A DNA stretch of 32,000 nt from an uncultured Bifidobacterium sp. (GCA_964529175.1 CAZGVO010000006.1:73308-105307), one strand, 5' to 3'. Counted from the first letter of the stretch, positions 1-26,998 are shown. The notes: generated from the letters alone by a model not told the origin. Translations and numbers: made by a program.

Positions 1-2736
1 AGTGTGTCGGCTGCTACAAGTTATTGGACTGGGGCAAATGGAACAGGTTCACAATTAACATCACTTTCTATTAGCGATTTATATTTAAACATAGGAAGTA
101 ATGTAAGCACTTCGGGTGATTTTACGCTTTCAAATGGTTCTAAGTTTATAGTTAACAACGGGGGTAACTTAACTATTGCAAGTGGGAATATAATTTCAGG
201 TACAATAGATGTAGAAAATGGCGGTACTTTAACTTTAAATAGTACATCTATTCCAACTTTAGGCACACTAGGTAGCACTAGTACTATAATATTTGGTGCA
301 AATGGCGCGCAAGCAGTTACTACCAAAAATTATGGTAACTTAACCCTTAGTGGAGGTAATACCAAAACCATAAGTGGAGCTGCTGCGGTGAGCGGAGCTT
401 TAACTATTAATGGTACTGTATTAGCTTTGGGAAGCAACAATTTAACTCCAACCACTTTAACTTTAGACGGTTTAGGAACTAAAAATGATTCATGGGGTTC
501 TACAGCTGGTTCAGCTAATTATAAAAATGTATCTTATTTTGGTGCTACTGGCACAGGAACAGTAACTCCTAGTAGCAATACTGCTGCAACAGCAAGTTTT
601 AGTAATATTGCTACAAGCCAAAGTATTAATTATGGAACAGCTACTGTTTCATTAAGTGGTAAAGTTGCATCTGGCTCTATTTATCCTACTAATGGTGAAA
701 CAGTATCAGTAACCATTAATGGAGTAGCACAAACTACTACCACCACCAGTGGAGATGGTTCATTCTCTATCAATTATACTACTAGCACTTTACCAGTTTC
801 TGCATCACCTTACACCATTACTTATGCTTATACAGGTTCTGCAAATGGTTTTTTAAAGGCAGCAAGCAATGAAACAAGCACAGCTTTAACCGTAAATGCA
901 GCTACTAACAACTGGGTAGGTGGAACAGGCAATTGGAGCAGTACAAGTAATTGGAGCTTAAGCAGATTACCTTCTGCCCTAAACGATAATATTGTTATTA
1001 ACAGCGGAACCCCTACTATGGATGCAGACTATATAGTTGGTGCTGGAAGAACATTGACCATTAGTGGTACAGGTAGCTTGGTAATTAATGCTGGTAAATC
1101 AATTACCATTGATGGAACAGCAGATTTTGGTGGTAAATCAGTTACGCTTAAATCAACTGCTGTTGCTTCTGGCTCAATTGGAAAAATAACAGGAACTTTA
1201 ACAGGTGCTACCAATGTAACAGTTGAACGTTTTATAACTGGTCAATCAATTAGAGGTAGATGGAGATTTTTATCTAGCCCTGTTCAAGGCCAAACAGTAG
1301 CCAATTGGATGAACAGTTTTTATGTAACTGGTCCTGGCGATAGCATAGCTGCTAATGCAGTTAATGGCTCTACTTTAGGAACTACCAATACCAATGGTTT
1401 TAATACCAATTATGCTAATATTTTATATCCATCATCTACCATGTCTTCGGATGTTAGAAGTGTTAAAACTACTTCAATTAGAGTGTATGACGAAACAGTA
1501 ACTACTGGAGGAATTGATGGCGGTTGGGGTAATATAACTACAGCTACTACGCTAGATGCTGGCAAAGGATTTAGAGCCTATATTAGAGGAGATAAAAATG
1601 CAGTAAATTCAGCCCAAACGCAATTAGGAACTAGTGCCAATGGCAATATACAAGGAAGTGTAAATATTACCTTGACAGGAACTCCTAACCAAGGCGAGGT
1701 AAATGCCAACCCTACCTTTACCAGTTCAGGAACATTGGCAAACGATGGTTGGAATTTATTAGGAAATCCTTACCCATGTTCGTACGATTTTGTGGCTCAC
1801 AGAAATGCAGGTAGTTCAGTATTTAGTAATATAGACCCAACTGTATATGTTTATAGTGGAGTAACAGGTGGTTATGTAAGTTTTAATGCATTATCAAACA
1901 CCAACTTAAATTTAGATAATGGTATTATTCCGGCAGGTGCAGGTTTCTTTGTTAAAGCCAATGCCGCTAATCCAGTGTTTAAATTTCAAGAAGCATATAA
2001 AACTACCAATAACCATGTAGGTACTGGTGTGCATAAAACAGCTAAAACCGATGAGTTTGGAATTAAATATTATAAAGATTCTACTGAAAGCGATTATATA
2101 GTAGTTAAACCTTACCAAGGTGCTACTATGAATGCTGAAAATTTAGATATTATAAAAGTGCAAAACGATAATTTAAACTTATCGGCTTATGGTGCAGATT
2201 CTATATTATTAAGTGCAAGTTTAATACCACCAGTAATAGAGGAAACAAGAGTAAAATTAAATGTAGAAGCTACTGCAATAGGCACTTATAATTTTGATTT
2301 TAAAAACATGGATAATTTCCAAAGCGATATTACAGTTCATTTATTTGATAGATATACCAACAAAACCATTGATGTTAGAAAAAATACTAAGTACACTTTT
2401 AGTATGGGGCCGGGTACCAATCAGTGGGGTAAAAACCGTTTTGAGTTAATTTTAAATATGGATAAAACAGGAATAAATGAGTTTAATGTATTAAACAAAA
2501 CCCAAATGTTGGTTTACCCTAACCCTGCTACCGATGTGTTAAACATTGATATTAGCAATAGCAGTTTCAAAAACTCAGAAATAGTGGTTTATAATATTTC
2601 GGGAACCGAAGTAATAAAAACCAATATGGCTAGCAATAGTGTACAATTGAACATTGAAACATTAAGCGCAGGAGTGTATTTTGTAAAAGTAAGTAACCAA
2701 AATGGTTTTAATAAAACAGTAAAATTTGTAAAATAG
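1..2736 (+). CDS. Large secreted cell-surface repeat protein, 5'-truncated by the window edge, with a T9SS (Por) type-A C-terminal sorting domain
   Basis: The frame is open from nt 1, so the GTG at 4 is only an ORF-caller start. Composition is Thr/Ser/Gly/Asn-rich beta-strand repeats. The last ~80 aa (MLVYPNPATDVLNIDI...GVYFVKVSNQNGFNKTVKFVK) fit the Bacteroidota T9SS CTD pattern. The last ~500 aa are clearly paralogous to the C-terminus of 4768..10788 (VERFxxG..RWRFLSSPVQ, GWNLLGNPYPC, NQWGKNRFELILN). Confidence 0.85.
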   Translation, partial: SVSAATSYWTGANGTGSQLTSLSISDLYLNIGSNVSTSGDFTLSNGSKFIVNNGGNLTIASGNIISGTIDVENGGTLTLNSTSIPTLGTLGSTSTIIFGANGAQAVTTKNYGNLTLSGGNTKTISGAAAVSGALTINGTVLALGSNNLTPTTLTLDGLGTKNDSWGSTAGSANYKNVSYFGATGTGTVTPSSNTAATASFSNIATSQSINYGTATVSLSGKVASGSIYPTNGETVSVTINGVAQTTTTTSGDGSFSINYTTSTLPVSASPYTITYAYTGSANGFLKAASNETSTALTVNAATNNWVGGTGNWSSTSNWSLSRLPSALNDNIVINSGTPTMDADYIVGAGRTLTISGTGSLVINAGKSITIDGTADFGGKSVTLKSTAVASGSIGKITGTLTGATNVTVERFITGQSIRGRWRFLSSPVQGQTVANWMNSFYVTGPGDSIAANAVNGSTLGTTNTNGFNTNYANILYPSSTMSSDVRSVKTTSIRVYDETVTTGGIDGGWGNITTATTLDAGKGFRAYIRGDKNAVNSAQTQLGTSANGNIQGSVNITLTGTPNQGEVNANPTFTSSGTLANDGWNLLGNPYPCSYDFVAHRNAGSSVFSNIDPTVYVYSGVTGGYVSFNALSNTNLNLDNGIIPAGAGFFVKANAANPVFKFQEAYKTTNNHVGTGVHKTAKTDEFGIKYYKDSTESDYIVVKPYQGATMNAENLDIIKVQNDNLNLSAYGADSILLSASLIPPVIEETRVKLNVEATAIGTYNFDFKNMDNFQSDITVHLFDRYTNKTIDVRKNTKYTFSMGPGTNQWGKNRFELILNMDKTGINEFNVLNKTQMLVYPNPATDVLNIDISNSSFKNSEIVVYNISGTEVIKTNMASNSVQLNIETLSAGVYFVKVSNQNGFNKTVKFVK

Positions 2737-2805
2737 ACGAAGTGGTCGTTGAGCGGAGCCGAAACGCACACTTCGTCTGAAAGCTTTCGGACTTTGCTCA
2801 GTGTC
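2735..2805. repeat. Intergenic GC-richer hairpin element (REP-like), member of a dispersed family
   Basis: Perfect 10-bp inverted repeat AGACGAAGTG (2735-2744) / CACTTCGTCT (2769-2778) around a 24-nt loop GTCGTTGAGCGGAGCCGAAACGCA. It is followed by the palindrome GAAAGCTTTC (2779-2788) and GCTCAGTGTC (2796-2805). The same motifs recur at 13354-13408, 15128-15178, 16183-16199 and 27016-27069. Confidence 0.6.
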
Positions 2806-2830
2806 TATTAACCATTAACTAATCAACAAG

Positions 2831-3019
2831 ATGAAAAATATAACAAAAATAATAATGGCAGTAGCCATAGTAGTAGCAGTAAGTTTTGCAGCTAATGCAC
2901 AACCAGGCAGTGGTTCTGGAGGATTTGATGATGAACCGCAAGATGTGCCAGTAGATGGAGGAATAGTACTACTAGCAGCAGCGGGAGCTGCCTATGGGTA
3001 TAAAAAATTGAAAAAGTAA
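2831..3019 (+). CDS. 62-aa mini-protein: Sec signal peptide, Gly-rich linker and a PEP-CTERM/GlyGly-CTERM-like tail (DEPQDVPVDGG, hydrophobic stretch, KKLKK); copy A
   Basis: MKNITKIIMAVAIVVAVSFAANA|QPGSGSGGFDDEPQDVPVDGGIVLLAAAGAAYGYKKLKK. A paralog at 10881..11069 differs in the tail only by synonymous changes. A strong terminator follows directly (3037-3071). Confidence 0.8.
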   Translation: MKNITKIIMAVAIVVAVSFAANAQPGSGSGGFDDEPQDVPVDGGIVLLAAAGAAYGYKKLKK

Positions 3020-3036
3020 ATTTCCTTAAAACAATG

Positions 3037-3071
3037 AGAGGCTATCTTTTAATTAAGATAGCCTCTTTTTT
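3037..3071 (+). terminator. Rho-independent terminator closing the adhesin/mini-protein unit A
   Basis: Perfect 12-bp stem AGAGGCTATCTT (3037-3048) / AAGATAGCCTCT (3055-3066), followed by a T run. Confidence 0.85.
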
Positions 3072-3208: not shown

Positions 3209-3454
3209 ATGTTACAAATAAAATACCTGTTCTTTTTTCTTGGAAGTTTTGCCATAGTATTTGTCAGTATTAATATTTTAAGAAAATTTACTAGTAAAAG
3301 GCAGTGTCCTTATTGCGGTAGTGCAACCGATTTAGAAAGAATAAAAAGTGCTTCTATTTTTAAATTAATACCTGCTATAAATGCCAAACACTTTGTTTGT
3401 TATAAATGTAATAGAAAGCATTACAGAATAGGTTCATCAGATTTAGATAAATAG
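3209..3454 (+). CDS. Small membrane-anchored zinc-ribbon protein (hypothetical)
   Basis: An N-terminal hydrophobic helix (LFFFLGSFAIVFVSINIL) is followed by two CxxC pairs (CPYC ... CYKC). I recognise no family. Confidence 0.4.
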   Translation: MLQIKYLFFFLGSFAIVFVSINILRKFTSKRQCPYCGSATDLERIKSASIFKLIPAINAKHFVCYKCNRKHYRIGSSDLDK

Positions 3455-3724
3455 TTTAATCAATTTTTTTGATTCTATAACAGTTCCAAATAAGGAGCAT
3501 AGGTTTTTTCGGGCATTGGTAATTAATATTTAGCAAATAAAAGCAATCGTTATGCTTTGAGTTTCTTCTTCCACTTTTCTCCAAATTATAGGCTAATACT
3601 GTTTTTTCTGCTTTTTTTGTAGAAAAACCATCACACTCACAAAAGTTTAGTAGCTAATTAACACCAAACAAGCATTTGTTTGCAAGGATTAGATTTTTAG
3701 GCAATTACAAATTTTGGCATATTG

Positions 3725-3740
3725 TTGCACATATGTGCAA
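3725..3740. promoter_or_regulatory. Perfect 16-bp palindrome TTGCACATATGTGCAA; candidate dimeric DNA-binding-protein site
   Basis: Read directly from the sequence. It lies 15 nt upstream of the 42-bp repeat array. Confidence 0.3.
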
Positions 3741-3754
3741 TGTATATAATAATG

Positions 3755-4006
3755 TCGTTTTAGTCGTTGCATCATGATGTAATCAATAATTCGGGTTCGT
3801 TTTAGTCGTTACATGATGATGTAATCAATAATTCGAGTTCGTTTTAGTCATTGCATGATTATGTAATTAATAATTCGGGTTCGTTTTAGTCGTTACATGA
3901 TGATGTAATCAATAATTCGGGTTCGTTTTAGCCATTACATGATGATGTAATTAATAAATCGATACTATTTTAGCTATTACATCAATTTGCAATTGATTTT
4001 ACACCT
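3755..4006. repeat. Tandem array of ~6 copies of a 42-bp unit, each carrying an internal palindrome
   Basis: Units start at 3755, 3797, 3839, 3881, 3923 and 3965, an exact 42-nt period. The consensus is TCGTTTTAGTCGTTACATGATGATGTAATCAATAATTCGGGT, with an internal TTACAT-GATG-ATGTAA inverted repeat. The last unit is degenerate. Confidence 0.9.
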
Positions 4007-4767
4007 TTTGGTAAGAACAGCAGCTTGTTTTAATTTTATAGAAAGTAAATTGATAGCAATAAAAGGAAGTTTTAAAAGGACAGCAGTTCATTTTATACCT
4101 ATGGAAATTGATATGATAATAATAGTAAGTAACTTTACACGTATAGCAGTTGATTTTTTGTCTTTATAAACTAATTTAATACTTATAGAATTTAGTTTTA
4201 CCTCAATAAAAGCTGATTTAACAATGCTATTAACCTAGTTGACAAATAAAAGTTGATTTATCATATTTACCTAAAACTATTTCTGCTTGCTTTTACATTT
4301 TCTCTTCCTTTTAAATCTTCAAATAGAGCAGGCATAATTGCATTTAGTATGTTTTAAATAGTTTCCTCAGCATCATTAACTTTTTTGCCACATTAGCGTC
4401 CTGTGTAATTCATGTTTTTGTTCAGCTAGTTTTAAAATTTTTAAGTTTATGGATATAATTTATTAAAAATAGTGTGTTGTATTAGCCGTAAAACTTTTTG
4501 CTTAAGTATTGGTTTTTAATTAAAACCATAAGCTTTTAGCAAAAAAGCCTAAAATGAATTGTAAAATTTTTTGAATTTGAGGTAATTAAAGTACTACATA
4601 GTTAAAAATTAATGCTACTTAATACAAAAAAACAGCCATTGGTAAAAAAAACAGTAAAAAAACAGGCAGAAAAATGACATTTAATTATTCATTAACATTT
4701 AAAACACACAAATATTTTTATTTTGCCTTCTTGAAATAAATTGAAAATAAACTAAACGGAAATATAT

Positions 4768-7700
4768 ATGATAACTAATGTTTTACAATTAAAAAACCAG
4801 CCTCCCACGCAAGGCAGAACTAGTATTTTTAAATACCTAAGCCTTTTGGCTATGGTACTATTTTTCGGATTGAACGGGGTGAAGGGGCAAACGTATAGCC
4901 AAATTACAACCTTAGTAGGGTTAGTTGATGGGGATTATTTGATAGTAGGAGATGGGGCTACTAATGATGGAATAATGTTGAACACTGTTGATGCAACACC
5001 CTATATTAACCGCACGACTGTAACTAACCCTGGTTCTTCAATAACAAGCGGTTTTACTTCGGCCAATGTTTTTCAGATAACAGTGGTCTCAGGTGATATT
5101 ACTATATACAACTCATCAGTTGGGTATGTTTCTTGGGGGCGTACTGGAAATACTGGAAATACTGCTAATTTTTTTAGTGGTACGGTTGCAAATTCTGAAA
5201 GATGGACTCCAACAGTTAGTAGCGGATTGTGGACATTGACTAATGTAGGAACAACCGCTAGAAGTTTACAGTGGAACAATTCTAACCCCCGATTTGCATG
5301 TTATACTAGCACACAAGTTAGGTTGAAACTTTATAAATTAGCCACTACAGCCCCACTTGCCCCAACAATTGGAACAATAACCCCAGGTAATCAACAATTA
5401 TCTGTAGCTTTTACAGCTGGTAGTGATGGCGGTTCTGCTATAACAACTTATAAATATTCAACAGACGGAGGAGCCACTTTTTTAACAAGACAAACTGGTA
5501 CAACTGCCTCTCCAATTATTATTACTACTTTATCATCAGATGGAACTACCCCACTTACAAATGGTGCAAGTTATAATGTTCAAATTAGAGCTGTTAATGC
5601 TATAGGAGATGGAACTGCTACCGCAAGCACGGCAGCTACTCCGTATACTACACCAAGTGCGCCTACTATAAATAGTGTAACCGCAGGAAACACGCAATTA
5701 TCGGTAGATTTTACTGCCAATGCTACAGGTGGTTCGGCTATTACTAATTACCAGTATTCAACAGACGGTGGCGCTACTTTTTTAAACCGACAAACAGGTA
5801 CAACTGGCAGTCCTATTGTAATTACAACTTTATCATCTAATGGTTCAACATCTTTAACAAATGGAGTAACATATGATGTACAAATAAAAGCTGTAAATGC
5901 TGCTGGAGCTGGCACAGCTTCTTCAACTGTGCAAGGAACTCCTGTGGCTCCTGTATCACCTACTTTAACTGTGTTGGGTTCATTAAGTGCTGTTAATACT
6001 ACTTACGGAACTGCTAGCGCTAGTCCCACAAGTTTTACAGTTAGTGGAGCTTCATTAACCAACGATATTGTAATTACTCCACCATCGGGTTTTGAGGTTT
6101 CAACTTCAATAGGTAGCGGTTACACAACAAGTTTAACATTAACTCAGAGTGGTGGAAGTGTAAGCACTACCACTGTTTATTTGCGTTTAGCTGCCACTAC
6201 TGGTTTTGGTACTTATAGTGGCAATATTGATGTAACAAGCACAGGTGCTGTTACTCAATCAGTAGCAACAGCAAGCAGTAGTGTAGCTAAAAAAGCATTA
6301 ACAATAACTGGAATAACAGTTGATAATAAAATTTATGATGGAACCACAACAGCTACTACTTCTGGCACAGCTGTGTATAGTGGGTTAGTAAATAGTGAAT
6401 CATTCACTGTTACTGATATAGTATCATTTGCTTTTGCAACCGCTTCAGTAGGTAATGGTAAAACCATTAACCAAACCGGAACATATACAGCGCCCTCGGT
6501 TAATTATTCAATAAGCCAGCCAACATTAACAGCTAATATTACAACAGCAACACCTCCAACTATTACACCTGCTTTAGGTACAACAGTTGATGGTTCATTT
6601 AACGTAACTTTTGTTGATGATGCTTTATGGCGTTCAGGCATTACAGGTATAACAGTTGGAGGAACAACATTAACTGCTGGTTATACTGTTTCTTCTGGCC
6701 AAATCGCTTTTAATCCAGCTGCATCAGTTCCTACTGGTTTATTACAAACGGCAGGTTCTAAAACAATTGTAGTTTCCTCAACAGGATATAGTAGCAATAC
6801 TTTTACACAAGCTATTGGAGTTGGAGCAACTACAAAATTAACTAATAACACAGCTCCTGCAGCCCCTGCCACCAATGGAGTGGTTTTAGCAACTCAGCCA
6901 AAGGTAAATATTACTGACCAATATGGTAATATTATTACAACTGATAATTCAACTGTAGTAACTGTAGCTGCCACGCAAGGTACTTGGACATTAGGGGGAA
7001 CTTTAACTGCAACTGCTGTAAATGGAGTAGCCTCATTTAGTGGGTTAACTGCTACAAGTGCTACAGCTATTACTGGTGCAAGTTTAGATTATACAGCTAC
7101 AGGTCTAGCCGGTTTTACATCTGCTACATTTAATATTCCTGCACCAGCACCAGCAAACGATTTGTGTGCAAGCGCAATTACATTAACTGTTGGCGCAGGT
7201 TCAACTGGTGGTAGTATGGATGGAGCAACCATGTCAAGTCCTTTTAACGATGATAATGATGTTTGGTTTAAATTTACAGCCACTTGTACTGGAACAGCAA
7301 CGGTTACTATTAGCACAACCAGTCAAGATATAGATTTAACGGCTTGGAGTACTTCGTGCCCTGCTGCCACTACTGGTAATATCGGAACAGGAGGAGGTAC
7401 TTCTTCTTTAACAACCGAAACACTAACAATTTCTGCAACTCAGGGAACAACTTATTTTGTTCGTGTTATTCATTATGCTGCTACTTCAGGTTCGGTTGCT
7501 GGTAGTTTTAACATTGCAGTTACTTCTTCAGTAAATTCTACTTTAGCTTTGGCTAATACAGGAACTCCAGCTGCAGGAAATATTTCAAATGGAACATCAA
7601 ATGTTACTTTATTTGGATTTAGCTTAACACCTTCGGCATGTAATAATATTAGCATTTCATCAGTTAGTATTACCACAGCAGGAACAGCAACAAGTTCAGA

Positions 7701-10700
7701 TTTATCAAATTTTAGATTATTATATGACGCAAATAGCAATGGAACTGCCGATGCCGGTGAAATTTCTTCACCAATTGGAACGGTAGCTAGTTTGTCAAAT
7801 CCTTTAGTTTTTTCTAGCTTAGCAGGTCAATCTTTTTCACCCTCTACTGTCAGAAGATACTTATTGATTGCCGATGTGGCTGCAAGCCCTACAGATGGTG
7901 TGACTTTTACTGGTTCATTATCAAATACAAATGTAACCTCAACAGCTACAGCAAGTTCCTCTGCAACTGGTAATGCACAAACTGTTATTATTCCAACTGT
8001 TCCTTTAGTTCCTACAATAAATTCAATAACTGGTGGTACAAATCAATTAAGTGTTGCTTTTACAGCAGGTGCTAATGGTGGAGCAAGCATTACTACTTAT
8101 AAATATTCAACAGATGGTGGAGCAACATTTAGAACAAGAGCTTCGGGATCTACTGCTTCTCCTTTAGTAATTACAACACTTTCATCTGATGGAACCACCC
8201 CATTAGTCAACGGAGTTACTTACGATGTACAAATTAGAGCAGTTAATTCGGTAGGAGATGGCGTTGCAAGCTCAACAACACAAGGTACACCAGTGCTGAC
8301 AAATACAACTGCAAAATTATGGAATTCTGCTGCTGGATCAGCATGGCTTACTTCAGGTAATTGGAACGGTGGTTTACCATCAAGCACTGAAGTTGCTCAG
8401 TTTGGTGGAAACCCAACCCCCGGCACAAGCGTTAATATTAATGGTGGTACAACAGCAATTTCGGCTATTGAGGTAACCAATTCAAGAATATTGAATTTGA
8501 CAATAGGCAATAATTCTGGTGGCGCAACTAATGGCACTCTAACCTTGAATGGAGGAGTTGTGAATAGTATAGAAAATATTATTATTAGAAATAATAGTGC
8601 TAATTTATTAACCTTACAAAATACTGGTTCTTCTGGAAGTGGTTCAAATACAATGAGTTTGGCTCTAGGAAACTCAACTAACAATATAATTAGTATTGAA
8701 GGTAATGGAGGTATTACTATTTCTTCTATAATTTCTGGTAGTTCAAGAAATTTAACTAAAATTGGCGCTGGTGCAGGTGTTTTAACATTAACTGGTGCAA
8801 ATACTTACTCAGGTATAACAACTGTATCAGCGGGTACTTTGCGCTTAAATAGGTCAGGAGGAACAACTATTCCTAATACAAACAATGTGGTTATAGATGG
8901 AGGAACTTTACAAGTAAGTAGTAATCAAACATTAAACGATTTAACATTAACAAGCGGCACTTTAATTATTGATGCAGGTGTAACTTTAACTATAAATGGT
9001 ACTATTACTAGAACTTCGGGTGTAATTAGAGGTTCTTCTACATCAAATTTGGTTATAACAGGTACATCAGGAACAATAGCTTTCGACCAAACAACACCAG
9101 GCACTACTAATTTACTTAGAAACTTAACCATTAGTGGTTCTGGTACAACTACATTAGGTAATGCATTAAACATAGTTGGTGGTTCGAGCGCAGGTATAGT
9201 AACAGTAGGAAGTGGTGCAACATTAGCAGCAGGAAATAACTTAACTTTAAAATCAGATGCAAACGGAACAGGTTCAATTGCTTCAAACAATAGTGGCTTA
9301 ACTTATATTACCGGTAACGTAACTGTAGAACGTTTTGTAAGTGGTGCAGGAAGAAGATGGAGATTTTTATCATCACCTGTTCAATCAGCAACTGTGGCTA
9401 ATTGGATGACATATTTTTACGTAACAGGTCCTGGCGATGGGGTAACTCTTGGAGTGCCAATGTCGACAGGCTGGCATGCCTCTAAAGCAAATATTGATTT
9501 TCCAAATAGTACTTTTGGTTCAGATCCAAGAAGTGTAAAAACCACTTCTATTAGAACTTACAATGAATCAGCAAGTGGTAATAATACCAATATTAATGCT
9601 GGTTGGGAAAATTTATCTGGTACAAATCAGGCTTTAACTCCTGGTCAAGGTTTTAGAGTATTTGTGAGAGGCGCAATAGGCACAACTGGTCAATTGGATG
9701 GTTCAGTAACTTCGCAGTCTTCAGTAATTTTAGCTTTAACAGGAGCAGTTAACCAAGGCGATGTTTCACCAACGATTACTAATAATACACAAGGTTGGAA
9801 TTTAATAGGAAATCCATATCCATGTGCTTATAATTTAAAAGCACAGTACGATGCAGCTCAAACTTCGAACATGAACAATATTGATGTAAATTATTACGTG
9901 TTTGACCCCAATACAAATGGCTATAAAGGGTATAATCCTGCAGCAAGTTCTGGCGCAGGTGCTGGAACGTTAACAAGTGGTATTATACCTTCTGGTACAG
10001 CATTTTTTATCCAAGCAACAGGCACACCAACTTTTGTTTTTAAAGAAACATTTAAAACCACTTCGGCACCTATTGCATTACACAAAAGTGCTTCAAATAG
10101 CGAATTCAGTATTAAATATTTTAAAGATTCAGCGGAAAGTGATGAGTACATTTTAAGCATGATGGGTACAGCTACTTTAAATAAAGATAGATATGATATT
10201 AGTAAATTAAGAAACGACAATTTAAATTTATCAAGCTATGGTGAAGATACATTACAGCTCATGTTATCGTCAATTCCTTTAGTAGATGGCGAAACACGCA
10301 TTAAATTAAATGTAGAAGCAACTCAAGTTGGAACCTACAAATTTGAGTTTAAAAACATAGAAAACTTTGATGCAGGAGTAAGTGTAAGTTTACTAGATAA
10401 ATACACCAATAAAACTACAAGTATAAAAGCCAATACGGTTTACAGTTTTGAAATGGGAGCAGGCGAAAACCAATGGGGTAAAAACCGCTTTGAATTGATA
10501 TTAAATGGAAAAGCTACAGGTGTAAATAATACCAATGCTGCAGAACAAGTAGCACAAATGTTGGTTTACCCAAATCCAGCAACAGATGTGTTAAACATTG
10601 ATATTAACAATGCTAACTTCAAAAACTCAGAGATTGTAATTTATAATATTTCAGGTACAGAAGTGTTAAGAAGCAATATGGCAAGCAACAGTGCTCAATT

Positions 10701-10788
10701 AAATATTGAAACATTAAGTGCAGGAGTATATTTTGTAAAAGTAAGCAACCAAAATGGCTTTAATAAAACAGTAAAATTTGTAAAATAG
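4768..10788 (+). CDS. Giant (2006 aa) T9SS-sorted mosaic adhesin-like protein: signal peptide, 3 FN3 modules, YDG domain, PPC-like domain, autotransporter-associated beta-strand (PATR) repeat, conserved pre-CTD region and T9SS CTD
   Basis: Signal peptide: FKYLSLLAMVLFFGLNGVKGQ. FN3-like modules of about 100 aa (..QLSVAFTAG.DGGS.ITTYKYSTDGGATF..........YDVQIRAVN..G.G) lie at about nt 5350-5645, 5645-5945 and 8000-8290. YDG motif: KALTITGITVDNKIYDGTT (about 6289-6350). PATR-like motif: LTKIGAGAGVLTLTGANTYSGITTVSAGTLRL (about 8751-8850). C-terminus: MLVYPNPATDVLNIDI...GVYFVKVSNQNGFNKTVKFVK. Confidence 0.92.
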   Translation: MITNVLQLKNQPPTQGRTSIFKYLSLLAMVLFFGLNGVKGQTYSQITTLVGLVDGDYLIVGDGATNDGIMLNTVDATPYINRTTVTNPGSSITSGFTSANVFQITVVSGDITIYNSSVGYVSWGRTGNTGNTANFFSGTVANSERWTPTVSSGLWTLTNVGTTARSLQWNNSNPRFACYTSTQVRLKLYKLATTAPLAPTIGTITPGNQQLSVAFTAGSDGGSAITTYKYSTDGGATFLTRQTGTTASPIIITTLSSDGTTPLTNGASYNVQIRAVNAIGDGTATASTAATPYTTPSAPTINSVTAGNTQLSVDFTANATGGSAITNYQYSTDGGATFLNRQTGTTGSPIVITTLSSNGSTSLTNGVTYDVQIKAVNAAGAGTASSTVQGTPVAPVSPTLTVLGSLSAVNTTYGTASASPTSFTVSGASLTNDIVITPPSGFEVSTSIGSGYTTSLTLTQSGGSVSTTTVYLRLAATTGFGTYSGNIDVTSTGAVTQSVATASSSVAKKALTITGITVDNKIYDGTTTATTSGTAVYSGLVNSESFTVTDIVSFAFATASVGNGKTINQTGTYTAPSVNYSISQPTLTANITTATPPTITPALGTTVDGSFNVTFVDDALWRSGITGITVGGTTLTAGYTVSSGQIAFNPAASVPTGLLQTAGSKTIVVSSTGYSSNTFTQAIGVGATTKLTNNTAPAAPATNGVVLATQPKVNITDQYGNIITTDNSTVVTVAATQGTWTLGGTLTATAVNGVASFSGLTATSATAITGASLDYTATGLAGFTSATFNIPAPAPANDLCASAITLTVGAGSTGGSMDGATMSSPFNDDNDVWFKFTATCTGTATVTISTTSQDIDLTAWSTSCPAATTGNIGTGGGTSSLTTETLTISATQGTTYFVRVIHYAATSGSVAGSFNIAVTSSVNSTLALANTGTPAAGNISNGTSNVTLFGFSLTPSACNNISISSVSITTAGTATSSDLSNFRLLYDANSNGTADAGEISSPIGTVASLSNPLVFSSLAGQSFSPSTVRRYLLIADVAASPTDGVTFTGSLSNTNVTSTATASSSATGNAQTVIIPTVPLVPTINSITGGTNQLSVAFTAGANGGASITTYKYSTDGGATFRTRASGSTASPLVITTLSSDGTTPLVNGVTYDVQIRAVNSVGDGVASSTTQGTPVLTNTTAKLWNSAAGSAWLTSGNWNGGLPSSTEVAQFGGNPTPGTSVNINGGTTAISAIEVTNSRILNLTIGNNSGGATNGTLTLNGGVVNSIENIIIRNNSANLLTLQNTGSSGSGSNTMSLALGNSTNNIISIEGNGGITISSIISGSSRNLTKIGAGAGVLTLTGANTYSGITTVSAGTLRLNRSGGTTIPNTNNVVIDGGTLQVSSNQTLNDLTLTSGTLIIDAGVTLTINGTITRTSGVIRGSSTSNLVITGTSGTIAFDQTTPGTTNLLRNLTISGSGTTTLGNALNIVGGSSAGIVTVGSGATLAAGNNLTLKSDANGTGSIASNNSGLTYITGNVTVERFVSGAGRRWRFLSSPVQSATVANWMTYFYVTGPGDGVTLGVPMSTGWHASKANIDFPNSTFGSDPRSVKTTSIRTYNESASGNNTNINAGWENLSGTNQALTPGQGFRVFVRGAIGTTGQLDGSVTSQSSVILALTGAVNQGDVSPTITNNTQGWNLIGNPYPCAYNLKAQYDAAQTSNMNNIDVNYYVFDPNTNGYKGYNPAASSGAGAGTLTSGIIPSGTAFFIQATGTPTFVFKETFKTTSAPIALHKSASNSEFSIKYFKDSAESDEYILSMMGTATLNKDRYDISKLRNDNLNLSSYGEDTLQLMLSSIPLVDGETRIKLNVEATQVGTYKFEFKNIENFDAGVSVSLLDKYTNKTTSIKANTVYSFEMGAGENQWGKNRFELILNGKATGVNNTNAAEQVAQMLVYPNPATDVLNIDINNANFKNSEIVIYNISGTEVLRSNMASNSAQLNIETLSAGVYFVKVSNQNGFNKTVKFVK

Positions 10789-10800
10789 ATAATAGTAAAT

Positions 10801-10840
10801 AGACCATGGACCATAGAAAGAAAAATATGGTCTATGGTTT
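10801..10840 (+). terminator. Stable hairpin between the giant gene and mini-protein B; possible partial terminator or attenuator
   Basis: 14-bp stem AGACCATGGACCAT / ATGGTCTATGGTTT (two G-U pairs) with a 12-nt A-rich loop. Only a short T stretch follows. Confidence 0.4.
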
Positions 10841-10880
10841 ACTTAATTAATAGACTAACTAAATTAACAAAACAAAGAAA

Positions 10881-11069
10881 ATGAAAAAGACAGTAAAATA
10901 TATAATGGTATTAGCTATAGCAACAGCAATTAGTTTTGCAGCACAAGCACAACCAGGCAGTGGAGGCGGAGGATTTGATGATGAACCACAAGATGTACCT
11001 GTAGATGGAGGCATAGTATTATTAGCAGCAGCAGGAGCTGCTTATGGTTACAAAAAATTGAAAAAATAG
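10881..11069 (+). CDS. 62-aa mini-protein, copy B (signal peptide plus PEP-CTERM/GlyGly-CTERM-like tail)
   Basis: MKKTVKYIMVLAIATAISFAAQA|QPGSGGGGFDDEPQDVPVDGGIVLLAAAGAAYGYKKLKK. Codons 30-62 are identical in protein to copy A but carry 11 synonymous nucleotide differences. Confidence 0.8.
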   Translation: MKKTVKYIMVLAIATAISFAAQAQPGSGGGGFDDEPQDVPVDGGIVLLAAAGAAYGYKKLKK

Positions 11070-11185: not shown

Positions 11186-11782
11186 ATGAAATTTTTAACT
11201 AAGCAGAGCAATATTTTATCTTTAGCGATACCCAAAATATCGTTAGGGCTTAAGAACCTATCAGTATCTACGCTGATGTTGGGTTTGCTGCTTGCATTCA
11301 CTCAATTGGTTAAGTTTATTGTACTTTTAGTACAAGAATATATCCAACTGAACGATCAATATGGTTTTGAGCAAGAAACCATTTCACGAACCTCTCAGTA
11401 TTACGTTTATAACTATATTAAGAACACGCGTAGACTAGAATCCAGTCACGAACTTACCACTACCGCTCAACAGCTGAGCGAGCAAATGTCGGAGCAAAAA
11501 TTGGTGTTCTTGGTTTTAGGTGTTTTATCAATAATAGGTTTTGTAATTCTTTATTTTGCTTTAGATTACCTAATTGATTTTACTAGAAGATATAGACCTT
11601 GGAGTATTTTGGTTCTTTTAATCGCATTCACAATCAGTGTAATTTATATTGAATTTATTGATTTACGTAGCAGTGGAAATGGATATGCATTTATGTTTAC
11701 TACATTAATCAGCATCATTACAGGTATTGTGCTTATAGGCTATTCCCTTATTTTTCCAAATTACACCAAACAAGTTGATTAA
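11186..11782 (+). CDS. Hypothetical multi-pass membrane protein
   Basis: About 4 hydrophobic segments. No recognisable family. The start codon is uncertain. Confidence 0.45.
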   Translation: MKFLTKQSNILSLAIPKISLGLKNLSVSTLMLGLLLAFTQLVKFIVLLVQEYIQLNDQYGFEQETISRTSQYYVYNYIKNTRRLESSHELTTTAQQLSEQMSEQKLVFLVLGVLSIIGFVILYFALDYLIDFTRRYRPWSILVLLIAFTISVIYIEFIDLRSSGNGYAFMFTTLISIITGIVLIGYSLIFPNYTKQVD

Positions 11783-13319: not shown

Positions 13320-13353
13320 TCAATGTCTATTAGTTAATGGAAATACATTTCGT

Positions 13354-13408
13354 CCGAAAGCTTTCTGTATTCGCTCAATGTTCGCGGCCGTTGAGCGAAG
13401 TCGAAACG
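13354..13408. repeat. Intergenic hairpin element of the same dispersed family
   Basis: CCGAAAGCTTTC (13354-13365); TCGCTCAATG (13371-13380) inverted against CGTTGAGCGAAGTCGAAACG (13389-13408). The latter matches 20 of 24 positions of the loop of element 2735-2805. Confidence 0.6.
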
Positions 13409-13438
13409 AATAAAAAGCCTTACCAAATCATATATTTA

Positions 13439-15787: not shown

Positions 15788-15969
15788 TGTTGTTTATTTA
15801 AAAAATATAGTTGGCAATATACAAAATAACAACCAAGTTAAAATACTGACATAACTACCGATTTTTTAAAGATTTTGAATTTTGGATGTTGTCTCGACTA
15901 ATCGGGATTGAATTATTCTTTATTATTGTTGGAAATTTGAAAATAAGAGAGCGGAAGAGTATATTTTGC

Positions 15970-16245
15970 TTTGGCTAAAGCCAATTTTATTGCATTTTTC
16001 TTTTAACCCCCAGATAAATCTGTGGGCAATTCATCATTTGTTTTAACATCATTAAGGAATGATGAATTGCCACATGGCTTCAGCTTGTGGGAATAGAAAT
16101 GCAATTTCTCTTAACCCCAGATAAATCTAGGGTCAATTCATCGTTTGTTTCAACACCATTATCTAAAGATGAATTGCCACATGTTCCGAAAGCTTTCGCA
16201 TTAGCTTGTGGAATTGTAAGAATTAATCAATAGAAATGGGTTTCA
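15970..16245 (+). repeat. Two tandem ~120-bp multi-hairpin REP-like units (A: 15970-16089; B: ~16094-16245) upstream of the Y1 transposase
   Basis: Unit A contains TTGGCTAAAGCCAA, CCCCAGATAAATCTGTGGG, a perfect 14-bp inverted repeat GGCAATTCATCATT (16024-16037) / AATGATGAATTGCC (16057-16070), and CCACA...TGTGG. Unit B is a diverged copy. A third copy lies downstream of the gene. Confidence 0.85.
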
Positions 16246-16310
16246 ATTTATTTTGTATTTATAAATTAGTTGTAATTTTTTAAATTCGTTAGAATAAATA
16301 TTTTAATCAA

Positions 16311-16772
16311 ATGCCATTCATTAAAGTTTATATACATTTTGTTTGGAGTACTAAAAACAGAATTCCTTTTTTAAATAATAAAGAATTAAGAGTCAAGGTT
16401 TGGAATCACATAAAGGAAAATGCAAGAGAAAAAGGTATTTTTATTGATTTTATTAGCGGCTATTCCGACCATTGTCATTGTTTGATTTCATTAGGTTCCG
16501 ACCAAACCATTCAAAAAACAATTCAATTAATTAAAGGAGAATCATCTTTTTGGATTAACAAAGAAAATCTGATTGATGAGTCTGTTTTAAACAAATATGA
16601 TTCAAAATTTGAATGGCAAGATGAATATTTTGCTGTGTCTGTTTCTGAATCAATGTTAGATAAGGTCAGGAATTATATTAAGAACCAAGAGATTCACCAT
16701 CAAAACAAATTATTTCAAGAAGAATATGATGAATTTCTCTTAAAATATAATTTTCAAAAATTCAATGACTAA
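16311..16772 (+). CDS. IS200/IS605-family Y1 (HUH) transposase, RAYT-like (REP-associated tyrosine transposase)
   Basis: 153 aa. YIHFVWSTKNR opening, HUH motif DHCHCLI, and a catalytic-Tyr region FEWQDEYFAVSV. No tnpB follows, and REP-like hairpin units flank both sides. Confidence 0.85.
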   Translation: MPFIKVYIHFVWSTKNRIPFLNNKELRVKVWNHIKENAREKGIFIDFISGYSDHCHCLISLGSDQTIQKTIQLIKGESSFWINKENLIDESVLNKYDSKFEWQDEYFAVSVSESMLDKVRNYIKNQEIHHQNKLFQEEYDEFLLKYNFQKFND

Positions 16773-16777
16773 TTCTT

Positions 16778-16975
16778 TTGGCTAAAGCCAATTATATTGC
16801 ATTTTTCCTTTAACCCCAGATAAATCTGGGGGCAATTCATCATTTGTTTCAACACCATTAATGAATAATGAATTGCAGCATAGCTTTAGCCTGTGGATTT
16901 GTAAGAATCAATGAATAGAAATGGGTTTCAACCCATTTAATAAAAAAAGGCAATTATGGAATTGGCTTAAGCCAA
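16778..16975 (+). repeat. Third REP-like unit (C: 16778-~16935) plus an isolated head palindrome TTGGCTTAAGCCAA (16962-16975)
   Basis: Unit C aligns with unit A over about 120 nt with few mismatches and starts 6 nt after the transposase stop. It contains the 7-bp stem CCCCAGA-TAAA-TCTGGGG. It is in the same (direct) orientation as units A and B. Confidence 0.85.
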
Positions 16976-17035
16976 AGTTGGAATTTTGATTGATAGTCTT
17001 TAATGCAAGCAATGCTTTAGAGGAACTTTTTATTG

Positions 17036-17671
17036 CTATATCGACAGAGAAATTAGTAGTGAAATTCCACTCATTAATGCAGTAAAATAAACAAATTTTC
17101 TGATGTCATTTAAATCTCTACTTTCCTTTAAAATTATTTTTCTAAAATGTTTGGAAACTATAGTTAAAATTGAACTTGCCAAAAGCAATCCAAGGGCGCA
17201 ATTTACACCTGCACCAAGTGGAAAAACTTTTGATTTAGGATTTAACACGAACGGAATAATATCATACAGAAAAAGTAAATTCCACACAAGGCCAAAAATA
17301 ATTGCTACAGCTTTTTTCATAGGAAAGGAGCCTTCATTTTGTTTTTTTAAAATATCATTGACATTATAATTTTGAGGTGTGCTTTTATTTTCTAAAAAAC
17401 CTGTTCTTTCAATTTCTTCAATTACTAAAGCTGGATTTTTAAATGTCCAAAAAATAACCTTAGCATTGTAATTTTTAACACTATGATTTATTTTTATTCC
17501 GTTACTTTCTGGTTGTAATGAAATTATATCTTTAGATTGAAATATTAAATTACCAATAATAGATGCATTTATTGTCAAAACCTCTTTGTCCACATATAAA
17601 TCAGCAAAAGGGTAAGTTGCATTTGCAAACCCAATTCTTGCACCACCAGTTAAAGCATAATGTTCTTTCAT
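17036..17671 (-). CDS. Hypothetical protein: ~110-aa N-terminal soluble domain plus 3 predicted TM helices
   Basis: Long ORF with clear hydrophobic segments (AVAIIFGLVWNLLFLY, ALGLLLASSILTIV, FVYFTALMSGISLLISL). No family recognised. Confidence 0.5.
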   Translation of the reverse strand: MKEHYALTGGARIGFANATYPFADLYVDKEVLTINASIIGNLIFQSKDIISLQPESNGIKINHSVKNYNAKVIFWTFKNPALVIEEIERTGFLENKSTPQNYNVNDILKKQNEGSFPMKKAVAIIFGLVWNLLFLYDIIPFVLNPKSKVFPLGAGVNCALGLLLASSILTIVSKHFRKIILKESRDLNDIRKFVYFTALMSGISLLISLSI

Positions 17672-17790
17672 TTTGTCAAATATATCAATTATACCAATGT
17701 AGAGAGGCTTAATTAAACGTCTCTACGGTAGTCAACAACCTAGATTTCATTTTATTTTTTCAAAAATTCCCTTTTAAAGTTCCTAAATGC

Positions 17791-17798
17791 TACTTTTG
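17791..17798 (+). promoter_or_regulatory. Candidate Bacteroidota -7 promoter box (TAnnTTTG) for lysS
   Basis: TACTTTTG is a perfect match to TAnnTTTG, 40 nt upstream of the lysS ATG. No clean -33 TTG was noted. Confidence 0.35.
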
Positions 17799-17837
17799 CG
17801 TTCTTTTTTATAAAAATAGCATCAATAAAAAGCATTT

Positions 17838-19556
17838 ATGAGCAATCAATTAAGCGAACAAGAATTATTACGCAGACAAAAACTTAACGATATGCGCCAA
17901 TTGGGTATTGACCCTTTTCCGGCTGCATTGTTTCCTATTTCTCACACCTCGGTAGAAGCAGCTAGCAAGTATAGCGCAAACCAGGAAAGTGAAGAAATGA
18001 AACAGGTTACTTTTGCTGGCCGTATTATGAGTGTACGCGATATGGGTAAAGCGTGTTTTGTATTATTGCAAGATAGTGTAGGCAAATTACAAGTTTATGT
18101 GCGCAGAGATGATATTTGCCCTGACGAAGACAAAACTTTATACGATACCGTTTTTAAAAAATTAATTGATATTGGCGATATTATTGGCGTAACAGGTTAT
18201 ATGTTTACTACCAAAACAGGCGAAATTTCATTGCATGCCAAAACTTTGGTGGTATTGAGCAAATCAATTAAACCATTGCCAATAGTAAAGGAAAAAGATG
18301 GCGAAACCTTTGATGCAGTTACCGATCCTGAGTTTCGTTACCGTCAGCGTTATGCCGATTTAATTGTTAATCCGCATGTAAAAGATACTTTTTACAAGCG
18401 CAGTGTAATGGTAAAAACCATTCGCGATTTTTTAAATAACCATGGTGCTTTAGAAGTTGATACACCAGTTTTACAAAATATTCCTGGTGGCGCTGCTGCA
18501 AGGCCTTTTACTACGCACCATAATGCATTAGATGTTCCTTTTTATTTGCGAATTGCAAATGAATTATATTTAAAAAGATTAATAGTGGGTGGTTTTGATT
18601 TTGTGTATGAATTTAGTCGTAATTTCCGTAACGAGGGAATGGACAGAACACACAATCCAGAGTTTACCGTATTAGAGTTTTATGTAGCTTATAAAGATTA
18701 TAATTGGATGATGGATTTTACAGAGCAATTATTAGAAAAAGTTGCTTTAGAAATGCATGGAACTACCGATATAACTGTAGGCGATAAAACCATCAGCTTT
18801 AAAGCACCATTCAAGCGTTTGCCTATTTACGATGCCATAAAACAGTTTACAGGCTTTGATGTAAGCAATATGGACGAAGACCAATTACGTGAAGTTTGTA
18901 AAGAATTAGGTATTCCAACAGCGCCAAGTATGGGCAAAGGTAAATTGGTAGATGAAATTTTTGGAGAAAAATGCGAAGGCAATTTTATTGAACCAACTTT
19001 TATAACCGATTATCCAGTGGAATTAAGTCCTTTAACCAAAAAACACCGCACCAAAGAAGGTTTGGTAGAGCGTTTTGAATTAATGATAAATGGAAAAGAA
19101 GTAGCTAATGCTTATTCTGAATTAAACGACCCAATTGACCAACGTGAGCGCTTTGAAGAACAAGTAAAATTAATGGAACGTGGCGATGATGAAGCCATGT
19201 TTATTGACCACGATTTTTTACGTGCTTTGGAGTATGGAATGCCACCTACAGCAGGTATTGGTATTGGAATTGATAGATTGGCCATGTTATTAACCAACCA
19301 ACATTCTATTCAAGATGTGTTGTTTTTCCCTCAAATGCGTCCGGAGAAAAAACAATTGGATTTAACAGCAGAAGAGAAACAAATTTTAGAAATTTTGAAA
19401 CCAAATATCAGTATGCCTTTGGCCGATTTGAAACAAGCAGTTTCGCACTTAAGTGGCAAGCAATGGGATAAAGCCATGAAAGGTTTAGCTGGCCATGGTT
19501 TAACAAAAGTGGAACTGAACGGAGAATATAAAACTGTAAATTATATTGGGCAATAA
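17838..19556 (+). CDS. lysS: Lysine--tRNA ligase, class II (long Bacteroidota form with C-terminal extension)
   Basis: The OB-fold N-domain and the class II motifs are present (FRNEGMDRTHNPEFTVLEFY, GIGIGIDRLAML). Confidence 0.95.
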   Translation: MSNQLSEQELLRRQKLNDMRQLGIDPFPAALFPISHTSVEAASKYSANQESEEMKQVTFAGRIMSVRDMGKACFVLLQDSVGKLQVYVRRDDICPDEDKTLYDTVFKKLIDIGDIIGVTGYMFTTKTGEISLHAKTLVVLSKSIKPLPIVKEKDGETFDAVTDPEFRYRQRYADLIVNPHVKDTFYKRSVMVKTIRDFLNNHGALEVDTPVLQNIPGGAAARPFTTHHNALDVPFYLRIANELYLKRLIVGGFDFVYEFSRNFRNEGMDRTHNPEFTVLEFYVAYKDYNWMMDFTEQLLEKVALEMHGTTDITVGDKTISFKAPFKRLPIYDAIKQFTGFDVSNMDEDQLREVCKELGIPTAPSMGKGKLVDEIFGEKCEGNFIEPTFITDYPVELSPLTKKHRTKEGLVERFELMINGKEVANAYSELNDPIDQRERFEEQVKLMERGDDEAMFIDHDFLRALEYGMPPTAGIGIGIDRLAMLLTNQHSIQDVLFFPQMRPEKKQLDLTAEEKQILEILKPNISMPLADLKQAVSHLSGKQWDKAMKGLAGHGLTKVELNGEYKTVNYIGQ

Positions 19557-26521: not shown

Positions 26522-26998
26522 ATGAGTGAAATTGAAATATATAAATCTGCTGACGATGCAATTGAACTTCAAGTAAGTTTTGATGATGAAACTGTGTGGC
26601 TGTCGCAAAAACAAATGGCTAATTTATTCGGTAGAAATAGGGTTGCAATTACTCAACATATAGGAAATATTTTTAAGGAGGAAGAGTTGAATGAAAAAGT
26701 GGTGTGTAAGGATTTCTTACATACCACTCAACATGGTGCAATAACCGGAAAAACACAAGAAAAACCCATTAAATATTATAATCTTGATGTAATCATCTCA
26801 GTAGGTTACAGAGTGAAATCAAAGCAAGGCACTCAATTCCGACAATGGGCAACCCAACGTTTGAAAGACTACTTGGTGCAAGGATATGCAATAAATGAAA
26901 AACGGTTAAAAGAAGCCAACAGTAAATTACAAGATTTACAAAAAGCCATTACTTTAGCTGTGAAAGCGGGAAATAAAACAACATATTCATATTCTTAA
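26522..26998 (+). CDS. RhuM-family protein, N-terminal portion only (likely truncated remnant)
   Basis: IEIY...D..IELQV.FDDETVWL.Q.QMA.LFGR.R..IT.HI.NIF.E.EL.....C..F.........K.....YYNLDVIISVGYRVKS..GTQFR.WATQRLKDYLVQGYAINEKRL is the conserved RhuM N-terminal region. From memory, family members are roughly twice this length. Confidence 0.65.
   Translation: MSEIEIYKSADDAIELQVSFDDETVWLSQKQMANLFGRNRVAITQHIGNIFKEEELNEKVVCKDFLHTTQHGAITGKTQEKPIKYYNLDVIISVGYRVKSKQGTQFRQWATQRLKDYLVQGYAINEKRLKEANSKLQDLQKAITLAVKAGNKTTYSYS

Follow-up and report, generated by a model that had tools for sequence, protein, structure and literature searches.

The gene at 2831..3019 encodes, judging from its sequence, a typical PID-CTERM protein (NF046080, PF28310). 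The window, the whole 32-kb stretch of DNA that was analysed, contains two adhesin–mini-protein cassettes in tandem, and the mini-protein is the distal member of each. Among related loci, the mini gene is located almost always directly behind a gene for T9SS cargo. Therefore, the mini-protein and the upstream T9SS surface protein probably work together. The mini-protein make-up of the family and its near-constant T9SS type-A neighbour appear to be new; the curators of the family may have either recorded.

Translation of 2831..3019 (+ strand) gives the sequence MKNITKIIMAVAIVVAVSFAANAQPGSGSGGFDDEPQDVPVDGGIVLLAAAGAAYGYKKLKK. The N-terminus, residues 1–23 (2831..2899, +), is a predicted signal peptide with n-, h- and c-regions recognizable by eye, and the residues A-N-A precede Q24. 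The cleavage site was also placed by eye, based on the −3/−1 rule and the habit of Bacteroidota of having Gln at position +1. The signal peptide is followed by a Gly/Ser plus acidic linker (residues 24–38, 2900..2944, +), in which QPGSGSGG (24–31) precedes FDDEPQD (32–38). The PID-CTERM tail (residues 39–62, 2945..3016, +) is composed of VPVDGG (39–44), the 13-residue hydrophobic stretch IVLLAAAGAAYGY (45–57), and KKLKK (58–62). The first-pass annotation had described a 62-residue ORF with a signal peptide, linker, acidic patch, and tail, and the translation contains each of these features where it had placed them. A protein database look-up returned no record of the exact sequence of this copy.

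The NCBIfam model NF046080 “PID-CTERM protein-sorting domain” matches residues 39–62 with 42.3 bits and an E-value of 4.5e-11, the cutoff of the model being 26 bits. The match covers profile positions 1–24 of 25 and is located at the extreme C-terminus of the 62-residue product, behind the N-terminal signal peptide. The tail fits the model end to end, and the mini-protein shows no difference from the family at the level of sequence. The corresponding Pfam family, PF28310 (PID_CTERM), is recorded on all listed homologs but one, and a 92%-identical protein bears the PID-CTERM name at NCBI already. The Pfam search of the mini-protein without PF28310 gave a single weak match, to DUF4148, in the signal peptide. 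The first-pass annotation did not recognize the mini-protein as belonging to a described family; however, the family had already been curated under the two accessions given above. The interpretation of the C-terminal tail as a module of the sorting-signal type is upheld, since NCBI curators model it as such in NF046080. In contrast, the suggested affiliation to PEP-CTERM or GlyGly-CTERM has to be abandoned. Neither PEP-CTERM (TIGR02595), nor GlyGly-CTERM (TIGR03501), nor any other CTERM model of NCBIfam matched the mini-protein at E ≤ 10, because NF046080 was the sole model reported at this threshold. The motif of the mini-protein is V-P-V-D-G-G, without P-E-P. The T9SS type-A CTD (TIGR04183/PF18962) gave no match on the mini-protein itself, and the domain is present on the upstream neighbours. 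A literature search for “PID-CTERM” found the term in no searchable paper, and we know of no sorting enzyme or function for the family. A match of the homologs to a described sorting family with a known partner had been named in advance as evidence against the original proposal; the described sorting-domain family was found, whereas no known partner was identified.

The gene at 2831..3019 is genuine and evolves under purifying selection. A second copy of the mini gene is located at 10881..11069 (+) and encodes the 62-residue protein MKKTVKYIMVLAIATAISFAAQAQPGSGGGGFDDEPQDVPVDGGIVLLAAAGAAYGYKKLKK, which is identical to database protein P0026. The two copies differ by ten synonymous and no non-synonymous changes (29 mature-region codons). 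The pN/pS ratio calculated from 25 distinct homologous sequences is approximately 0.2, with pS near saturation. The first protein search identified 161 close relatives of the mini-protein, and those listed are 56–97 residues long. The open frame is not a product of chance, because it has more than 160 close homologs, its paralogs have accumulated synonymous changes only, and its pN/pS is approximately 0.2. The short length might point to a random reading frame or an erroneous gene call, but more than 1400 clusters of homologs, the restriction of paralog substitutions to synonymous sites, and a curated model in two libraries make this explanation next to impossible, and we consider it ruled out by the pattern of conservation.

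A profile search of 1.84 billion representative sequences identified 1404 clusters (50% identity) at E ≤ 1e-3. Among the best 150 of these 1404 clusters, all but three representatives are 40–118 residues long, the exceptions having 409, 207, and 195 residues; larger PID-CTERM proteins may rank lower. Among the members listed, the PID-CTERM family consists essentially of mini-proteins, mostly of about 60–90 residues. The observation of the first-pass annotation that the mini-protein has essentially no passenger domain was correct, and it extends to nearly all of the best 150 of the 1404 clusters. Since the missing passenger is the rule among listed members, it is no peculiarity of the product of 2831..3019. 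PID tails on large passengers were looked for and set aside, as only three of the 150 best representatives exceed 120 residues and two of these are of low complexity. The 409-residue exception, P0165, is a singleton from a 2-kb Logan contig, in which a PID-CTERM tail directly follows an adhesin-like repeat region (..RWRFLSS..FYVTGPGDG). The tail of P0165 takes the place of the usual C-terminal ~600 residues and CTD, which may reflect a natural fusion, a natural deletion, or chimeric assembly.

When 107 diverse members were aligned, a common plan of the family emerged. A Sec signal peptide, which usually ends in small-x-small followed by Gln, is connected by a short linker to the tail module. 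The module consists of the invariant P-[IVL]-D-G-G motif, the ..LLxAAGxxYG. stretch, and a Lys/Arg-rich tail. The linker is approximately 12–20 residues long and contains 19% Pro, 14% Asp, 12% Gly, and 1% basic residues. In 99 of 104 diverse members, exactly 13 residues separate the GG of the motif from the first Lys or Arg. Such a constant length would be expected of a site that an enzyme or partner recognizes more than of a plain membrane anchor.

The neighbour upstream of mini copy 1 is a large surface protein gene, the 3′ part of which occupies 4..2736 (+). The product, adhesin 1, has at least 910 residues, is cut by the edge of the window, and ends in a T9SS type-A CTD (residues 837–910) matching both Por_Secre_tail (Pfam) and TIGR04183 with 56.8 bits. 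Adhesin 2 (4768..10788, +) is 2006 residues long and includes fn3, YDG, Shr-like HID, PATR repeats, and a T9SS type-A CTD. The adhesin genes are separated from their mini genes by 94 nt (copy 1) and 92 nt (copy 2). The last ~140 codons of the two adhesins share approximately 90% DNA identity, and the same level of identity extends over the CTD and mini coding parts of the two cassettes, which are divergent in the spacer and passenger.

Downstream of mini copy 2, the gene at 11186..11782 (+) encodes an uncharacterised 198-residue protein with four hydrophobic segments and without a Pfam or NCBIfam match. Homologs of this protein with 186–204 residues follow one mini per genome in the window clade (L002, L006, L010, L018, L022, L026), and the protein may or may not be part of the mini system. 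We set it aside as a candidate processing enzyme, because it lacks conserved Cys and His residues, belongs to no matched family, and occurs behind just one of the minis of a genome, in a single clade. The region between the two cassettes contains an 81-residue ORF with weak zinc-ribbon matches (3209..3454) and, ahead of adhesin 2, approximately 1.3 kb that lack any ORF of notable size (3455..4767). A search for an invertible promoter upstream of adhesin 2 found merely weak AT-rich inverted repeats, and Rfam gave no match in the window. The ORF at 26522..26998 encodes a 158-residue protein of the RhuM virulence-protein family (93.8 bits), and upstream of it is a gene for a 916-residue SBBP-repeat protein with a weak CTD and no mini gene behind it.

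The arrangement seen in the window recurs in related genomes. We gathered 129 related loci from public assemblies and counted 131 mini genes in total, 105 of which have a same-strand upstream ORF within 600 nt and constitute the informative set; most of the others are at contig ends. The upstream gene is CTD-positive according to a local HMM in 103 of the 105 cases, a number that overstates the independent events, since many cassettes are related by duplication. The base rate among other ORFs of at least 150 residues in the same loci is 32 of 522 (6%). Por_Secre_tail was detected on 22 of 22 distinct upstream neighbours in the window clade and on 51 of 53 in a second clade, which originates from metagenomes. 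The linkage also holds for distant minis with ~40–50% identity and spans several orders; it is found in MAGs and isolates labelled Chitinophaga/Chitinophagaceae, Daejeonella, and Bernardetiaceae. Daejeonella belongs to Sphingobacteriaceae. The cultured strain Daejeonella oryzae DSM 19973 has the cassette as well (NZ_AUHA01000002.1, about 1.373–1.380 Mb); its mini gene and the end of the gene for a 977-residue CTD protein overlap, and another CTD adhesin gene follows. Individual genomes harbour many minis, for example at least ten on the Ga0247739 contigs. The first-pass annotation had treated the pairing with a T9SS adhesin as more than an accident, and the repetition of the cassette within the window, together with the informative relatives, bears this out. 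Although shared ancestry inflates these numbers, the spread of the linkage over many clades suggests that selection has favoured the arrangement.

The upstream proteins range from 453 to 2679 residues, yet their C-termini are near-identical. At least two types of module precede the CTD: 62 of the 103 linked proteins have the NRFEL-type and the rest the NNYYRIK-type. A separate CTD subtype for linked cargo was considered and rejected, since the NRFEL-type motif is enriched (62 of 103 versus 2 of 31) but not universal. The near-identical ends of proteins so different in length, and the DNA identity that covers the CTD and mini and is lost in the passenger and spacer, would also be expected if the mini had a general envelope role without functional coupling to the adhesin, and if the 3′ end of the CTD gene and the mini duplicated and recombined as one cassette. 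Stand-alone minis in housekeeping contexts agree with such hitch-hiking. Nevertheless, the linkage is maintained across mini clades with less than 45% identity, at least two types of pre-CTD module, and several taxa. Neutral hitch-hiking would be expected to decay over such a distance, and we therefore regard this explanation as quite unlikely.

Minis without an adhesin were found in two contexts (L033, L038–L041; L125–L128). At one conserved locus, a stand-alone mini adjoins genes for a PagL-like outer-membrane protein and a polyprenyl synthase and has no CTD neighbour. At the other CTD-free locus, two tandem minis are located behind a Peptidase_S46 gene. A Peptidase_S46 gene is also present at L129, 1.3 kb from the mini gene. 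The existence of stand-alone minis shows that the function of the mini-protein is not strictly dependent on a cis-linked adhesin.

The gap between the adhesin and mini genes is at most 35 nt in 31 of 93 pairs, and three pairs overlap, which suggests co-transcription. In the window, the operon-like layout and a terminator after mini copy 1 likewise suggest that adhesin and mini are co-transcribed. The hairpin at 3036..3067 (+), identified by a terminator scan, has a 13-bp stem followed by TTTTTT and folds with −20 kcal/mol (z −6.1); it is intrinsic-terminator-like and closes the first adhesin–mini unit. The spacers themselves are structured. The spacer between adhesin 1 and mini 1 contains a copy of a REP-like repeat at 2738..2812 (+; fold −28.1 kcal/mol, z −2.6). 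The repeat is approximately 75 nt long and hairpin-forming, and a related copy at 13338..13412 shares the motifs CGTTGAGCGnAGnCGAAACG and TTCGTCnGAAAGCTTTC with it. An IS200/REP-associated tyrosine transposase-like (RAYT-like) gene is located near the repeat (16311..16772), and the repeat and the transposase-like gene together look like a REP/RAYT-type system. Between adhesin 2 and mini 2 there is a perfect 16-bp hairpin (10800..10841, +; fold −22.7 kcal/mol, z −6.7). Among the spacers longer than 40 nt, 47 of 60 fold far better than shuffled sequences, with a median z of −5.8. Some of the structures are very large, with −107 kcal/mol in a spacer of 334 nt and −117 kcal/mol in one of 269 nt, for example; structured spacers include those of L036 (9667..10000), L013 (8603..8871), and L006 (9797..10000). 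The spacer hairpins could be terminators or attenuators, which would weaken the case for co-transcription. They may be generic intergenic elements that are not part of the mini system, because the one in the first cassette belongs to a dispersed REP-like repeat.

Based on the anatomy of the family and its gene neighbourhood, a mechanism can be proposed. The mini-protein may be a Sec-exported, passenger-less substrate of a sorting enzyme encoded at an unlinked site, made together with the adhesin and acting as an accessory or anchor; we favour this reading tentatively and give it somewhat less than an even chance. The Sec machinery would export the mini-protein, and the signal peptide would be removed. 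The short C-terminal stretch would hold the mini-protein transiently in the inner membrane, its basic tail lying in the cytoplasm. A dedicated sorting enzyme of the membrane, the gene of which is located at another place in the genome, would then recognize the PIDGG/hydrophobic module; among the enzymes of Bacteroidota, exosortase XrtF is the obvious candidate. The enzyme might cleave at the motif and hand the short acidic peptide over to an acceptor, either a lipid or a glycan. The peptide would be a consumed accessory, anchor, or escort for this class of T9SS cargo rather than a specificity factor. Each adhesin has its own mini, although the mature peptides are near-identical, those of the two minis in the window being one residue apart. 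The peptide is thus probably needed in step with the adhesin, and a near-identical copy for each paralog indicates dosage coupling rather than specificity.

The same features could belong to a protein that is never processed. The mini-protein would then remain a single-pass inner-membrane protein of ~38 residues, the helix of which packs on a PorL/PorM-type motor or Sec, while its stub escorts or primes the adhesin. The membrane segment is the most conserved part of the protein and has small-xxx-small spacing (AAGxxYG) typical of helix–helix packing, the periplasmic stub is acidic and without basic residues, and the linked CTDs have ends rich in Lys (such as KTVKFVK). The lack of a linked sorting enzyme and the gene-for-gene pairing would also suit a stoichiometric partner. 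However, a stretch of 13 hydrophobic residues is too short to form a stable helix across the bilayer, and stand-alone copies have no adhesin to escort. Moreover, an invariant motif such as P-x-D-G-G at the edge of the membrane is a hallmark of cleaved sorting signals, and the curators filed the tail as a sorting signal for this reason. We consider an unprocessed partner unlikely, and the 13-residue stretch with P-x-D-G-G at its outer edge, resembling that of cleaved signals, speaks for the mini-protein as a processed substrate.

The PID-CTERM proteins can be compared with several known systems. They resemble the PEP-CTERM/exosortase system in their three-part tail (Pro motif, short hydrophobic stretch, basic cluster) behind a Sec signal peptide, in the many paralogs per genome, and in the low-complexity acidic linker before the motif. 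Unlike PEP-CTERM proteins, they have P-[IVL]-D-G-G instead of P-E-P, a shorter hydrophobic stretch of 13 residues, and no passenger, and their genes adjoin those of T9SS cargo rather than an exopolysaccharide locus. With the GlyGly-CTERM/rhombosortase system they share a Gly-Gly pair where the hydrophobic stretch begins, and a basic tail behind it. GlyGly-CTERM proteins are numerous, and the gene of their processing enzyme is located away from theirs; we propose that the same layout may apply to PID-CTERM. GlyGly-CTERM occurs in Proteobacteria on T2SS cargo with real passenger domains, and its processing to a phospholipid-linked product was shown in Vibrio cholerae. In contrast, TIGR03501 does not match the mini-protein, and the window encodes no rhombosortase. 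The order of genes has a parallel in T9SS type-B CTD cargo with a PorP/SprF-like gene directly downstream, such as sprB–sprF of Flavobacterium johnsoniae. In both arrangements, a small accessory gene comes after the T9SS cargo gene, and each cargo paralog has one of its own. However, the cargo of the minis has a type-A CTD, and the downstream product is a sorting-tail peptide of ~38 residues and not an outer-membrane β-barrel.

No gene for a sorting enzyme was found near the minis. The 32-kb window encodes no exosortase, rhombosortase, or CPBP/CAAX-type protease, and specific searches of the window for exosortase XrtF (TIGR04128) and rhombosortase (TIGR03902) were negative. The multi-TM ORFs of loci L001–L124, ten of which were scored against NCBIfam, included no sorting enzyme, and the screened 10-kb flanks of ~130 related loci contained no exosortase or rhombosortase gene. 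A rhomboid gene is located 6.6 kb from the cassette in L010, a close relative of the window. We set its product aside as a candidate enzyme, because it scores 58.3 bits, below the rhombosortase cutoff of 84, and because its position is not conserved, with other genes occupying the place in the window. The region of L010 between LemA and lysS (15940..18368) contains a 166-residue ORF and the gene of a 516-residue rhomboid-family protein, and the corresponding place in the window (16311..17671) and in L002 contains an IS200-like transposase gene and a 211-residue ORF on the opposite strand.

The same rhomboid gene could be cited for a different kind of processing, in which a GlyGly-type signal would be cut by a rhombosortase-like protease of the rhomboid family and the acidic peptide left on a phospholipid head group. 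The invariant D-G-G right at the start of the hydrophobic stretch is like the GlyGly motif, and rhombosortase was reported to cut at GG and add a glycerophosphoethanolamine-containing moiety (PMC7468200). However, the tail has no GlyGly-CTERM match, the score of the L010 rhomboid of 58 bits compares with a cutoff of 84, the gene is absent from the same place in the window, and no rhomboid recurs among the neighbours of minis. We regard processing of this kind as very unlikely.

For the favoured reading of the mini-protein as a sorting substrate, exosortases offer a precedent. According to the proposal, they cut close to PEP, and the C-terminus created by the cut is attached to an acceptor of unknown nature (PMC7468200). 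In F. johnsoniae, deletions of xrtF and of its partner Fjoh_1449 result in the same pattern of phenotypes as deletions of porU and porZ (PMC10936215). The substrates of XrtF were stated to be unknown and expected to differ from PEP-CTERM (PMC10936215), so that the remark of the first-pass annotation that substrates of such Bacteroidota enzymes are not established was still valid in 2024. By analogy, the F. johnsoniae phenotypes hint at a link between T9SS and an exosortase. The same pattern of phenotypes is caused by the deletion of Fjoh_0651 (FJOH_RS03415 of F. johnsoniae UW101), a very small hypothetical gene, which is complemented by a 434-bp fragment (PMC10936215, Tables 1, 2 and S2). The C-terminus of Fjoh_0651, as deduced from a published primer, is ..VIYRNKIKKASI and has a basic tail (PMC10936215). 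A search with eight N-terminal and 12 C-terminal primer-derived residues found no database protein with those words. Judging from these primer-derived ends, Fjoh_0651 could be a related mini-protein. We speculate that the PID-CTERM minis might be the substrates of XrtF, and that the processed acidic peptide, or its product linked to a lipid or glycan, would be required for attaching or handling type-A T9SS adhesins at the cell surface; we hold this extended proposal to be doubtful.

If the minis were substrates of XrtF, the exosortase and T9SS sorting pathways would be coupled mechanistically, which would explain why F. johnsoniae xrtF mutants behave like mutants of porU and porZ, which belong to the attachment complex. 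The PID-CTERM minis are concrete candidate substrates for this orphan exosortase of Bacteroidota. Since the type strain Daejeonella oryzae DSM 19973, which is available in culture, has the cassette, the proposal can be tested genetically and by mass spectrometry. The neighbourhood of T9SS type-A cargo genes and the passenger-less peptides of fixed length provide the first functional context for the PID-CTERM family. To our knowledge, the attachment of T9SS adhesins is settled for Porphyromonas-type A-LPS anchoring only. The mini-proteins may represent a missing component in the surface attachment of T9SS adhesins in environmental Bacteroidota.
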